DNA of 64,000 nucleotides, from assembly GCF_988242995.1 (NCBI RefSeq), contig NZ_OZ547043.1; one strand, given 5' to 3'. Shown one piece after another: positions 2,626 through 5,924 of this stretch (positions are counted from its first letter, which is position 1; every line of letters starts with the position of its first letter). The notes beneath the pieces are model-generated. The model searched no databases and was not told the origin of the DNA. It saw only the letters and a list, made by a program, of their open reading frames with translations. The position numbers were made by a program, and so were the translations under genes.

Positions 2626-5022
2626 ATGCACGAAAAGAACATCGCCCTGCTTTGTGATGAAGCCGACCGGCTTTTGCAACTGAATATCAATCTGCTCCGG
2701 CAAATGGTTGATGAGCCGGATGTGTTATCTGACAGTAAGAACGAAAACGGGCTGCTTTTTGATAAACGGAAAGCGCTGAAAAGAATTGAGGAGCTGGAGG
2801 GCGAACAAATCAAAACCGCCCGCAGGGAGATGGTGCTGGCTGTTGTCGGCACGATGAAAGCAGGCAAATCAACCACCATCAACGCCATTGTGGGGCAGGA
2901 AATTCTGCCTAACCGTAACCGCCCCATGACCTCTGTACCGACACTCATCCGCCACGTTCCCGGAAAAACTGAGCCGGTCCTCCATCTGGAACATATTCAG
3001 CCTGTCCGCAATTTATTAATCACACTGCAGGAAAAACTCGCCACCCCGGCAGGACAGCAAGTCGCACAGACCCTGCTGCAAACCGGGGATACCCGTGAAC
3101 TGCTGGATATTCTGACGGATGATGGCTGGCTCAAAAATGAATACCACGGGGAGGAGGAAATCTTTACCGGACTGGCATCGTTAAACGATCTGGTTCGTCT
3201 TGCTGCGGCAATGGGGAGTGAGTTTCCTTTTGATGAATACGCAGAAGTGCAGAAACTGCCGGTGATCGACGTGGAATTCAGCCATCTGGTGGGGATGGAT
3301 GCATGCCAGGGAACACTCACACTGCTGGATACCCCCGGCCCTAATGAAGCCGGCCAGCCGCAGATGGAAGTGATGATGCGGGATCAACTGCAGAAAGCTT
3401 CTGCGGTTCTGGCAGTGATGGATTACACCCAGATGAACTCAAAAGCGGATGAAGACGTCCGTAAAGAGCTTAATGCCATTGCGGACGTATCAGTTGGCCG
3501 CCTGTTTGTGCTGGTCAATAAATTTGATGAGAAAGACCGCAATGGCGATGGGGCAGATGCCGTACGCCAGAAAGTTCCGGCAATGCTGAACAGCGATGTG
3601 CTGCCCGCCTCCCGCGTTTATCCCGGATCCTCACGCCAGGCATACCTGGCTAACCGTGCGCTTCATGAGTTACGGAAAAACGGAACCCTTCCTGTTGATG
3701 AAGCCTGGGTCGATGATTTTGTCAGGGAAGCTTTCGGTCGCATGAAAAAAGATTACGTCTGTAAAGACAGCGAACTGGCAACTGAAGGGGCAACAGACCT
3801 GTGGGAAGGCTCACTTATCGATCAACTGATAACGGAAGTCATACAGAGTTCCCATTCCAGAGCGGCGGCACTGGCGGTTGATTCTGCCGCCGCAAAACTG
3901 ATGCAGAATGCGGAAAATGTCAGCGAATATCTGTCATTACGCCATCAGGGGCTACAGCAAAGCATTCAGTCACTGCAGGCGCATATCACCAGCCTGCTTG
4001 CGGATATCCGGGAAATCGCGGACTGTCAGGAGCAGGTGACCGCTGATGTCAGAATGGCCATGGAGGAGATCGATGCCAGAACCCGGGAATTACTCACGGG
4101 GGTCTGCACCTCACTGGAAGAGGAACTGAATGACTATTTCAGAACCGGTAAACGCAAAGAACAGCAAATGCTGGAGGAAGAAGACACAGAACAACGAAGG
4201 TCCCGGTCCGGATTATGGGGAAAGATTTATCGATGGTCCGGTATCAATAACCCGGGCTGGGAGGATGACAGGATACGAGTCTTTGATCCGGAAAACCCCG
4301 AGATAACATTAAATAATCGCAGGGAAGCCCTTGAACTGATGACGCAAATCGAATCGACCGTGACCAGCCTGCACAGTGAGGCTGAGGCACAGTTCCGGCC
4401 TGAGCTGGAGAAAATCGTCAGCGGGATTGAAACAGGTTTTCGTGGTACGGCCCTGTATGCGACAGAAAACATCGCCGGACGTATCAATGCCCGCCTGGCG
4501 GATGAGGGCTTCACTGTAAAAATCAGTTTTCCGGCAGTCAGTCAGTTACAGACCCGGCTCGCGGTAAAAACAAATCTGAGTGCGCTTATGGAGGAAAGAA
4601 CGGAGACAGTCACCCGTCGCCGTCGGAAGGATAGCTTCATTGGAAAGATTTGTGGATGGATTGGCACCAAAGAATGGGGATGGGAAAACTATAACGTGGA
4701 TGTGAGCCGCAGTGTTATCAATATCAACAAGGTCAGGAAGGAGGTGATGTCACTGACCCGGGCATATTTCGGGGAGCTGCAGGCATCCATTGAGCAGGAT
4801 ATTAACCAGCCCGTCCGCCAGGAAATCGATGCCTTTTTCTGTACATTCAGGGAGAAAGTTGAACAGCTGCGTAACACGCTGATTCAGAGCTCTGAAGATC
4901 ATAAACGCGATCAGCAGGCGCAGGAACGGCTGACCGGGCGTCTTCAGGCGTTAAATGAAAGAGTTCCTGAGCTCATTACTGACAGTAAGGCGTTAAGGGA
5001 AGAACTGGAGACAATGCTGTGA
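2626..5022 (+). CDS. bacterial dynamin-like GTPase (798 aa), CrfC/YjdA-like
   Basis: G1 P-loop GTMKAGKST (nt 2848..2874), G3 DTPG (3328..3339), G4 NKFD (3517..3528); long helical C-terminal region; RBS GGAAGG upstream of ATG. Confidence 0.8.
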   Translation: MHEKNIALLCDEADRLLQLNINLLRQMVDEPDVLSDSKNENGLLFDKRKALKRIEELEGEQIKTARREMVLAVVGTMKAGKSTTINAIVGQEILPNRNRPMTSVPTLIRHVPGKTEPVLHLEHIQPVRNLLITLQEKLATPAGQQVAQTLLQTGDTRELLDILTDDGWLKNEYHGEEEIFTGLASLNDLVRLAAAMGSEFPFDEYAEVQKLPVIDVEFSHLVGMDACQGTLTLLDTPGPNEAGQPQMEVMMRDQLQKASAVLAVMDYTQMNSKADEDVRKELNAIADVSVGRLFVLVNKFDEKDRNGDGADAVRQKVPAMLNSDVLPASRVYPGSSRQAYLANRALHELRKNGTLPVDEAWVDDFVREAFGRMKKDYVCKDSELATEGATDLWEGSLIDQLITEVIQSSHSRAAALAVDSAAAKLMQNAENVSEYLSLRHQGLQQSIQSLQAHITSLLADIREIADCQEQVTADVRMAMEEIDARTRELLTGVCTSLEEELNDYFRTGKRKEQQMLEEEDTEQRRSRSGLWGKIYRWSGINNPGWEDDRIRVFDPENPEITLNNRREALELMTQIESTVTSLHSEAEAQFRPELEKIVSGIETGFRGTALYATENIAGRINARLADEGFTVKISFPAVSQLQTRLAVKTNLSALMEERTETVTRRRRKDSFIGKICGWIGTKEWGWENYNVDVSRSVININKVRKEVMSLTRAYFGELQASIEQDINQPVRQEIDAFFCTFREKVEQLRNTLIQSSEDHKRDQQAQERLTGRLQALNERVPELITDSKALREELETML

Positions 5023-5924
5023 CTTCACCATTTATTCAACAAATTGCTGATAACCGGGTATGTCAGGTACTCACCTGTCTTCCTGAAAAATTTGTGGTTG
5101 ATTTCGCAAACGGTATCGATGTTGCACAGGAGCATATCCGCACGGCCGGAGAGCGCACGTTCTTCCGGCGGTTAAAAGAGGGGCTGAGCGGCGAAGGTGC
5201 TGCACGGCAGAATGCCATCAATGCTTCGCTTGCACAGGGCGTTGAGGCATCCCTGCGCTGGCTGACGGAGCTGACAACGTCACTTGCCACCACAAACTAC
5301 GCGATTACCCGGGTAAACGACAGGGTCAGTTCACTGGTCAGTGATACTGCCAGGCTGGCGCATTATTCCGCAGATACGCGGGAGCAGTTACTCACCCTGG
5401 CCGATCAGGTTCACCAGAAACTGAATCATCTTGAAGAAAAACTCCACCGTGTTGACCAGGTTCAGCGGGCACAGTTACATCTTGAGCAGATATTCTCATG
5501 GTGGAGTGCCGGGCGATATGCGTCCTTTTCCCCTGCCGGACGCTGCTATGTGGCGCTTGAAGAGCTTCGATGGGGCGCGTTTGGTGATGTGATACGTCAG
5601 GGCGAAACAGGGCAGGTTAACCAGCTACTGGATATTCTCAGACATAAAGCATTAACGCAGATGGCACAGGAGAGTGGCGGTAGTGCAACCGTGCGTCTGA
5701 ACACTCTGGACTGGCTTGGTGGTCAGGTCCGGGAGCAGGCAGATAACGAGTGGCATGACGCGATTAACTGGCTGGGGGACTGGTGCAGTGAAGAGCGGCA
5801 TCCGGTGATCTGGTCAACCACGCAGGCTGCAGAACACTTACCGGTTCGTATGCCCCGTCTCTGCTCTGCAGAGCGCCTCTCTGAAAGTATGGTTGATGAA
5901 ATATTTCAGAAGGGGGCGGCATGA
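5019..5924 (+). CDS. dynamin-partner protein (301 aa), YjcZ-like
   Basis: GTG start overlaps stop of upstream dynamin gene (GTGA at 5019..5022); size and position mirror the crfC-yjcZ pair. Confidence 0.6.
   Translation: MTSPFIQQIADNRVCQVLTCLPEKFVVDFANGIDVAQEHIRTAGERTFFRRLKEGLSGEGAARQNAINASLAQGVEASLRWLTELTTSLATTNYAITRVNDRVSSLVSDTARLAHYSADTREQLLTLADQVHQKLNHLEEKLHRVDQVQRAQLHLEQIFSWWSAGRYASFSPAGRCYVALEELRWGAFGDVIRQGETGQVNQLLDILRHKALTQMAQESGGSATVRLNTLDWLGGQVREQADNEWHDAINWLGDWCSEERHPVIWSTTQAAEHLPVRMPRLCSAERLSESMVDEIFQKGAA

Follow-up and report, generated by a model that had tools for sequence, protein, structure and literature searches.

Near the start of a 64,000-nucleotide stretch of DNA (contig NZ_OZ547043.1 of the RefSeq assembly GCF_988242995.1; hereafter the window, meaning the whole stretch analyzed), an island-borne operon encodes a dynamin-like GTPase, a YjcZ/RdcB-family protein and a patatin-like phospholipase, in that order. 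The anatomy of this three-gene operon and its paralogy to the chromosomal rdcA-rdcB pair of Escherichia coli (crfC/yjdA and yjcZ of K-12 are now named rdcA and rdcB, respectively) are established here. From its distribution and phylogeny we consider it likely that the three-gene module is the ancestral and horizontally mobile form, of which rdcAB would be an Enterobacteriaceae derivative that lost the patatin gene. The best explanation of the locus as a whole, which we regard as evenly poised, is that of a three-gene operon for a GTPase-gated phospholipase, with defense as its most likely role, behind an agn43-type switch. The operon comprises the following features:

2626-5022, plus strand: dynamin-like GTPase, 798 aa, ATG start; RdcA/CrfC paralogue of the patatin-linked clade
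5019-5924, plus strand: YjcZ/RdcB-family protein, 301 aa, GTG start; all-helical
5921-6991, plus strand: patatin-like phospholipase, 356 aa, ATG start; PF01734
7008-7036, plus strand: terminator-like G+C-rich hairpin followed by a T-run, called from the sequence and a consensus scan only

Both junctions within the operon are 4-bp overlaps (GTGA and ATGA), a good Shine-Dalgarno sequence (AGGAAGG) stands ahead of the dynamin ATG, and the hairpin, which begins 17 nt past the patatin stop codon, likely forms the operon's 3′ end. All three coding sequences are 100% identical to those of E. coli S88 (NC_011742.1, 2069083-2073448), where RefSeq names them 'dynamin family protein', 'diguanylate cyclase regulator RdcB family protein' and 'patatin-like phospholipase family protein', and the window is also 100% identical to a set of related extraintestinal pathogenic (ExPEC) and avian pathogenic (APEC) E. 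coli genomes.

The initial annotation, which had likened the 798-aa GTPase and the overlapping 301-aa reading frame to a crfC-yjcZ pair lying elsewhere on the chromosome, is borne out on both counts: the two genes belong to the same two families in the same order, and rdcA-rdcB occupies a separate core locus of its own, which 5404 of the 5426 complete E. coli genomes carry. Similarity to CrfC extends well past the G domain, with the NCBIfam CrfC model NF007368 aligning end to end (residues 1-797 to model positions 1-736 of 742) at 558 bits, as compared to 33 bits for the next, generic dynamin model, and with a BLASTP match to K-12 RdcA (46% identity, aa 33-454, E=2e-118) that is followed by a weak colinear match in the C-terminal part. 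The 301-aa protein in turn matches the YjcZ model over its whole length (PF13990, E=4.7e-70; residues 26-296, model positions 1-272 of 272), and against RdcB it shows 31% identity across 281 aa (E=6e-39). Both are thus specific relatives of CrfC/RdcA and YjcZ/RdcB, so that neither a likeness confined to the generic GTPase domain nor a middle protein foreign to YjcZ is what we found. Identity with the CrfC equivalog was considered and rejected: the 558 bits fall below the curated cut-off of NF007368 (1146 bits), and the protein shares neither the clamp motif nor the core synteny. Specifically, where CrfC carries its β-clamp-binding motif 41-QLALP, of which Q41 is essential (PMC6374313), the island dynamin reads E40-N-G-L-L.

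To place the two forms relative to each other, one genome per GTDB species was scanned using an alignment of YjcZ sequences, and the open reading frames of 79 loci were classified by phmmer. Wherever the contig reaches, all 29 island-type YjcZ loci hold dynamin, YjcZ and patatin in the same order and on the same strand, with both junctions overlapping or abutting, usually by 4 bp, in 25 of the 29. Their Enterobacterales hosts are E. albertii, Pantoea, Erwinia and Budvicia, and the others include many Pseudomonas, Macromonas, Comamonadaceae, Aquaspirillum, Gallionella, Allochromatium, Thiodictyon, HdN1, Pontibacterium and several metagenome-assembled genomes (MAGs), so far as named spanning the Gamma- and Betaproteobacteria. 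The 50 RdcB-type loci, by contrast, all belong to Enterobacteriaceae, read yjdM-rdcA-rdcB-proP wherever the contig reaches, and in no case carry a patatin gene. Every YjcZ gene examined outside the Enterobacteriaceae has patatin directly after it, and patatin again follows the distant metagenomic YjcZ members. Mobile carriage is evident from enterobacterial plasmids with a three-gene variant (63.5% identical) and from a mobilizable Nostoc plasmid with the complete module, the YjcZ protein of which is 24.5% identical (tblastn); within E. coli the island module is present in 2442 of the 5426 complete genomes, in one to five copies each that are 90-100% identical and lie at several chromosomal sites. 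One locus (L090, 5001-7630) encodes a 532-aa DUF3944-YjcZ fusion followed by patatin, with parE/parC directly upstream and no dynamin gene there, and because this variant dispenses with an immediately upstream dynamin gene, it suggests that YjcZ and patatin form the tightest, minimal pair of the module. In a MAG labelled Synergistaceae (L028, 1290-6356), the dynamin reading frame upstream of YjcZ and patatin measures 1688 aa, about twice the normal length, and is possibly a tandem dynamin fusion.

Phylogenies were computed for dynamin, YjcZ and their concatenation as bootstrapped neighbor-joining trees on simple distances, with 500 replicates. The rdcAB pair is monophyletic in 100% of bootstraps and, in the dynamin and concatenated trees, sister to the three-gene module of Budvicia (98-100%). 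Without an outgroup, the Enterobacterales modules and rdcAB together split from the rest in 88-98% of the dynamin and concatenated replicates, a figure that falls to 21-29% when Nostoc is added; when the trees are rooted on Nostoc, a root on the rdcAB branch is seen in 0-2% of replicates for the dynamin and the concatenation and in 8% for YjcZ. Taken together, the wide range of the three-gene form, the restriction of the pair to Enterobacteriaceae and the trees argue that rdcAB derives from the module by loss of patatin, such that the chromosomal pair would have arisen from within the patatin-linked clade through patatin loss and rewiring to the diguanylate cyclase DgcE. Two points weigh against this order of descent, namely that the YjcZ tree alone does not put Budvicia beside RdcB, and that the trees are neighbor-joining reconstructions on simple distances whose distant Nostoc outgroup may suffer from long-branch attraction. 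The opposite direction, in which a crfC-yjcZ duplicate moved from the chromosome to an island and was later joined to a phospholipase, would account for the shared gene order and sizes, for the homology of the proteins and for the core status of rdcAB in E. coli as against the accessory island copy. We nevertheless deem it very unlikely, given the far wider taxonomic range of the patatin-linked form, the grouping of rdcAB with the Budvicia module, the rarity of a root on the rdcAB branch and the identity values of the island YjcZ, which is closer to a Pseudomonas homologue (49%) than to E. coli's own RdcB (30%). Of the earlier view that a housekeeping dynamin module had been copied and then recruited beside a phospholipase, the paralogy itself thus stands, and the direction of repurposing is probably the reverse.

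A change of partner along this path from three-gene module to rdcAB is mirrored in the sequences, because the N-terminal half of YjcZ and the stalk and tip of the dynamin diverge while the C-terminal domain of YjcZ is kept, as are the G domain and neck of the dynamin. The N-terminal half (residues 1-150) is specific to the patatin-linked clade and is the best-conserved part among three-gene modules, with a mean identity of 0.50 as compared to 0.21 toward RdcB, whereas the C-terminal domain (151-301) is common with RdcB and nearly as similar between modules and RdcB (0.36) as among modules (0.40; ratio 0.90). For the dynamin, the corresponding between- to within-clade ratio is about 1.0 in the G domain and neck (67-412) and 0.5-0.68 in the stalk and tip (413-798). 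We infer from this pattern that the YjcZ C-terminal domain and the dynamin G domain and neck would carry the common function, that is, the GTPase cycle and dynamin-YjcZ binding, and that the YjcZ N-terminal half and the tip of the dynamin would be turned toward the effector, which is patatin for the modules and, for RdcA, the MASE1 domain of DgcE. The YjcZ family as a whole is small: at 50% identity, 1.84 billion proteins contain 496 clusters of it.

The homology to RdcA and RdcB, the conservation of the YjcZ C-terminal domain and of the dynamin G domain and neck, and the presence of DgcE in E. coli (PMC6510439) could alternatively be taken to mean that the island pair is a second input into cyclic di-GMP (c-di-GMP) signaling, regulating DgcE or another cyclase with patatin as an incidental neighbor. 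This we hold to be highly improbable, given that none of about 35 loci has a diguanylate cyclase linked to it, as against a patatin in every case, and that the stalk/tip and YjcZ N-terminal half, which are the candidate partner-binding parts, differ most from RdcA/RdcB.

The proposal of a GTPase-gated phospholipase instead follows from three considerations: the RdcA/RdcB precedent, the strict YjcZ-patatin linkage and the intact catalytic center of the patatin. RdcA and RdcB form a GTPase partner system of DgcE in which partner binding by the GTPase is restricted to a particular nucleotide state (PMC6510439). By analogy, the island GTPase would oligomerize and carry the YjcZ protein as an adaptor, and would have to be in a particular nucleotide state to engage its membrane target, here proposed to be the patatin encoded in cis. 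Hydrolysis of inner-membrane phospholipids would then be gated by the GTPase cycle or by perturbation of the membrane or the GTP pool, and its most likely role would be conflict or defense, as phage-triggered membrane lipolysis or abortive infection. We put such gating slightly below an even chance and its use in defense lower still, as a tentative reading drawn from context.

Pfam recognizes the first protein through Dynamin_N (PF00350, E=5e-17), and its G domain (approximately aa 67-335) carries G1 GTMKAGKST, G2 T102, G3 DTPGPNE and G4 NKFD, motifs that are conserved in 27 three-gene-module and 51 Rdc-type sequences and mark the domain as dynamin-type by sequence. An AlphaFold2 (AF2) model with a predicted local distance difference test (pLDDT) score of 79.6 adds long stalk helices (413-527, 565-626 and 700-797), and thereby a predicted helical neck/stalk architecture of the dynamin superfamily; the tip (aa 528-565 and 627-700) is modeled as β-hairpins with Trp/Arg-rich, basic loops of low confidence. 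The stalk tip contains a Trp-rich insertion of some 28 residues (aa 522-549, RSGLWGKIYRWSGINNPGWEDD) that is missing from RdcA-type proteins, and a WGW motif at the stalk tip (aa 682-686) is kept in both the patatin-linked and the RdcA-type clade; the two are candidate contacts to the membrane or to a partner. The top Foldseek matches are SynDLP (7zw6), BDLP (2j69), IniA, mitofusins, Cj-DLP and LeoA, with E=7e-13 to 1e-8 and a probability of 1.0 for SynDLP, BDLP, IniA and the mitofusins.

This fold, which is shared by membrane fusion and repair proteins of the BDLP/SynDLP/IniA/mitofusin class, brings up a protective role, in which the dynamin would seal or fuse inner membrane that has been damaged and the patatin would remove or remodel damaged phospholipids, thus delaying lysis and conferring tolerance to stress or phage. 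Work on DynA of Bacillus subtilis, in which lysis of infected cells was reduced (cited in PMC12922286), is in line with such a function, as is a cytoplasmic and catalytically intact patatin. Set against it are the lack of a hydrophobic paddle in the dynamin, the nature of its closest characterized relative RdcA, which is a regulatory GTPase acting on a partner protein and not a membrane remodeler, and the linkage of YjcZ to patatin even where no dynamin gene is adjacent upstream, which looks more like a regulator-effector pair. Membrane repair or remodeling is accordingly an unlikely alternative to the gated phospholipase, although one with a measure of plausibility.

The phospholipase itself (PF01734, E=8.4e-27) combines a GGG oxyanion motif (G13-G15), the nucleophile motif G40-V-S42-I-G44 and the catalytic D223-G-G, all three of which are invariant in 32 patatins of three-gene modules, and their invariance points to an active lipase kept by selection. 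The protein has no signal peptide and, as judged from these features, is catalytically intact and cytoplasmic; its nearest solved relatives are PlpD (5fqu) and VipD, with the likeness confined to the N-terminal 60 aa. That some patatins, among them ExoU and VipD, act as toxins on the host, that LeoA is among the structural matches of the dynamin, and that the module is island-borne in ExPEC and enterohemorrhagic E. coli (EHEC), lying directly downstream of cah in O157-type islands, could be taken to suggest a virulence or vesiculation factor similar to LeoABC of enterotoxigenic E. coli (ETEC), which would promote the release of outer-membrane vesicles or act on host membranes and would explain carriage on pathogenicity islands by Ag43/Cah. 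Such a role is very doubtful for a module with neither a signal peptide nor a linked secretion system, which also occurs in free-living Gallionella, Allochromatium, Thiodictyon, Macromonas, Pseudomonas and Nostoc, and for which PADLOC yields only weak and partial LeoBC matches and none to LeoA.

Expression of the presumptive phospholipase module appears to be placed under a promoter with a well-studied counterpart, the relevant features being:

2506-2573, plus strand: promoter/regulatory region homologous to the Dam-OxyR switch of agn43 (flu) and cah, from sequence and alignments
2519-2524, plus strand: -10 hexamer TAGAAT, by homology to agn43
2530-2533, 2548-2551 and 2561-2564: three GATC sites within 35 bp
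1497-2408, plus strand: YeeP/YkfA-type small GTPase of the island backbone, outside the three-gene module

The 218-bp spacer between yeeP and the dynamin gene contains TAATAGAAT followed by the three GATC sites, with a predicted transcription start at about 2530 and a 5′ leader of about 96 nt. The region aligns with the yeeP-isrC-flu region of K-12 and with the region upstream of cah in EDL933 (homologous segments: L084, 2793-2870; L087, an EDL933-type island, 383-460), and in a four-way alignment that includes K-12 flu and EDL933 cah the elements TAATAGAAT, CGATC, TATCGATCG and CGATC are invariant and in register. In K-12 the TAGAAT lies 6 nt ahead of the annotated 5′ end of isrC, which itself is immediately upstream of flu. 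The E. albertii, O103:H2 and O157:H16 copies moreover retain all three GATC sites although neighboring bases are substituted. Together, these comparisons make the homology of the promoter to the agn43 switch very probable. The pick of a σ70 scan, a weak hexamer pair at 2515-2544, was dropped after its match count proved no higher than in shuffled sequence, and the promoter call therefore rests on the agn43 homology. Elsewhere in the window, three GATC sites fall within 40 bp at a single place (27649-27669), which by the S88-map offset is inside hisB, bears no likeness to the switch and is probably due to chance.

At agn43, phase variation operates through the GATC sites, where Dam methylation blocks the repressor OxyR to give heritable ON and OFF states (PMC3764049, PMC2909390). 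No paper that we found links the dynamin operon with OxyR, GATC sites or phase variation, and the main text of a methylome paper on sequence type 131 (ST131) holds no site-level data; phase variation of the operon is therefore a prediction from homology, to which we give somewhat better than even standing. Because the Escherichia operon sits behind such a switch, only a heritable subpopulation would be expected to express it, which would amount to bet-hedging for a costly or toxic function; a bet-hedging switch is compatible with a costly effector.

Two arrangements relate the switch to the module. The junction found in the window, with the switch directly ahead of the dynamin gene, is present in 1981 of the 5426 genomes, and the O157-type junction, in which the switch is followed by cah, a 110-bp spacer and the dynamin gene, in 635. 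The latter is exemplified by an EDL933-type island (L087, 660-7973), where cah, an Ag43-family autotransporter gene that itself has the switch, is followed after 110 bp by the three-gene module. Beyond Escherichia we recognized no homologous switch, and only two Pseudomonas loci reach three GATC sites within 45 bp upstream; the switch thus appears to be an acquisition of the Escherichia islands and not a feature of the family. Five non-Escherichia loci (L007, L010, L012, L022 and L026) encode WYL-domain regulators directly upstream of the dynamin gene (PADLOC matches with E ~1e-22 to 1e-25), and a second WYL type is found near three Pseudomonas loci (L014, L021 and L024); these regulators may be the counterpart of the Escherichia GATC switch.

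Support for a role in defense comes largely from the neighborhoods of the module, the flanks of which are variable and often mobile (integrases, insertion sequence (IS) elements and plasmids). A search of 29 hand-picked flanking proteins against PADLOC placed beside the module a BREX BrxC (1385 bits, L004), a phospholipase D (PLD)-like protein with an SNF2 helicase (L005, L030), a type I restriction-modification system (L021), a DRT-like reverse transcriptase (L019) and PDC-S24 (L031). Directly downstream of the patatin gene, Pantoea, Erwinia and Pseudomonas loci carry a JukA-like gene (L005, 9034-9498; L014, 8993-9730; L030), of which the L014 member, the only one searched, matches JukA with E=1e-31. 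In E. coli MP1 the module adjoins EcoKI and Druantia (PMC12922286). Clustering of the flanking open reading frames of the 29 loci found no fourth conserved gene, a candidate that was consequently rejected; the recurrent flankers are the WYL regulators (five upstream, and three of the second type), JukA (three) and integrase (three).

Two known defense systems were weighed as identities for the module and discarded. Eleos was rejected with LeoBC at 21.5 bits without a qualifying stretch and no LeoA match in PADLOC, and a cyclic-oligonucleotide-based anti-phage signaling system (CBASS) with a patatin effector was rejected because the operon encodes no cyclase and the 18.9 bits of CBASS_lipase fall far short of its cut-off of 200. 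Further PADLOC hits are similarly weak and partial (ZorA, NsnC and a CBASS effector besides LeoBC), PHROGs gives no match for the module, and no phage record encoding a YjcZ relative was found, from which we conclude that the module is not Eleos, not CBASS and not phage-borne.

The overall explanation has to be held against several opposing points. At the promoter, the putative -35 element is weak, and OxyR binding and Dam-dependent sequestration ahead of the dynamin gene are predictions. At the protein level, no hydrophobic paddle helices are evident in the tip of the AF2 model and RdcA is reported to be soluble (PMC6510439), which together leave membrane binding by the dynamin unproven, and the usual Arg/Lys of the patatin GGGx[RK]G motif is absent, with V17 in its place in a variable column. 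The association with defense genes comes from hand-picked flanking proteins without a statistical background, many flanks giving no match, PADLOC v2 returned no strong match for the module, and the literature yielded no phage-resistance data for it. We consider it rather doubtful, if worth stating, that the module constitutes a widespread immune (abortive-infection) class of GTPase-gated phospholipases, phase-variable in Escherichia, with RdcA/RdcB as a domesticated, effector-less remnant rewired to DgcE.

The bare observation of the operon is already in print. A 2026 paper noted it and suggested a putative role in phage defense, while stating that no link between dynamin and phospholipase was found in the literature (PMC12922286), and the operon genes are listed among those of an O118 island (PMC13182975). 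Our own searches found no literature testing a dynamin-patatin system, nor, in the literature covered, the clade structure and derivation of rdcAB, the region-specific divergence or the agn43-type switch. In MP1 the dynamin operons are strongly upregulated in Kapi1 lysogens, independently of medium and without tracking the lytic-lysogenic decision, as determined from two colonies per genotype (PMC12922286). This difference between two MP1 lineages is compatible with, and could reflect, ON versus OFF states of the switch instead of an effect of the prophage.

With respect to its genomic setting, the operon occupies the cargo slot of a CP4-44-type island at the position that CP4-44 takes in K-12, as read from the gene content on both sides. 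Upstream lies the YeeP-like GTPase gene, downstream follow DUF932, antirestriction, YeeS, YeeT, CbeA, a frameshifted CbtA and YeeW, and past these island genes come the core genes tmaR (yeeX), yeeA and sbmC and the his operon. The corresponding slot in K-12 is held by flu (Ag43), and a YeeP-type gene likewise stands ahead of flu in K-12 CP4-44 and of cah in EDL933. Three-gene loci outside Escherichia have no yeeP-type gene, the exception being a weak 27-bit match far upstream in Budvicia (L009). Following the operon, the stretch 7019-8236 is low in GC (42%) and holds small reading frames with hydrophobic, signal-peptide-like N-termini; RefSeq annotates coding sequences at 7127-7810 and 7826-8236, the second of which matches phrog_8968 (E=2.6e-45), and in E. 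coli O157:H16 Santai (L086) other genes replace this segment. Farther on, the cbtA toxin gene (approximately 11146-11520 of the window) is frameshifted according to the S88 annotation, and the antitoxin gene cbeA is intact.

Nearly half of the complete E. coli genomes, including ExPEC and EHEC lineages, carry the operon, often in several copies, and the label 'diguanylate cyclase regulator' is what RefSeq attaches to its middle gene. Should the module prove to be a GTPase-gated phospholipase, it would provide a new effector logic for bacterial dynamins and a function for the YjcZ family, and should rdcAB be its domesticated derivative, it would clearly exemplify how a conflict or accessory module can become an input of housekeeping signaling. 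An agn43-type switch would further mean that differences between clones in bulk RNA-seq or phenotype may be confounded by ON/OFF state, as possibly in the reported 'induction in lysogens'.

Compared with known systems, the regulatory region resembles the agn43/cah switch in its position downstream of yeeP, its -10 box and its three GATC sites in register, but would drive a dynamin/YjcZ/patatin operon in place of an autotransporter gene. It further departs from flu in that the leader of about 96 nt replaces the long isrC leader, and from cah in that 18 bp instead of 19 separate the starts of GATC-I and GATC-II. With RdcA-RdcB the module shares the two families, their order and the 4-bp overlap, a G domain and neck whose identities across the two clades, at 56% and 45%, come close to the values within the patatin-linked clade, the G1-G4 motifs including the residues equivalent to K82 and T103, and a conserved YjcZ C-terminal domain. 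What sets it apart is the third, always-linked patatin gene, its accessory and mobile instead of core nature, the diverged YjcZ N-terminal half and dynamin stalk and tip with the stalk-tip insertion, and its different chromosomal site and agn43-type promoter, rdcAB being reported to be under FlhDC/FliA control (PMC6510439).

The likeness to BDLP, SynDLP, IniA and the mitofusins lies in the Dynamin_N G domain, the helical neck and stalk and a predicted tip domain, with sequence similarity to BDLP extending no further than 50 aa in the region of the P-loop (E=1.5e-5). LeoABC is likewise island-borne in E. coli; LeoABC and Eleos, however, employ two or three dynamins, whereas the module pairs a single dynamin, devoid of a hydrophobic paddle, with a YjcZ adaptor and a patatin. 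The third gene finally relates the operon to CapV and VipD, with which it has in common a patatin fold with GGG, GxSxG and DGG motifs and the placement of an enzyme gene beside that of a presumed regulator. CapV of CBASS is activated by cyclic GMP-AMP (cGAMP), yet the operon has neither a cGAS/DncV-like nucleotidyltransferase (CD-NTase) nor a nucleotide-sensing domain. The Legionella protein VipD is activated by the Rab5 GTPase and thus offers a precedent for a GTPase-activated patatin, the proposed activator here being the dynamin/YjcZ complex.

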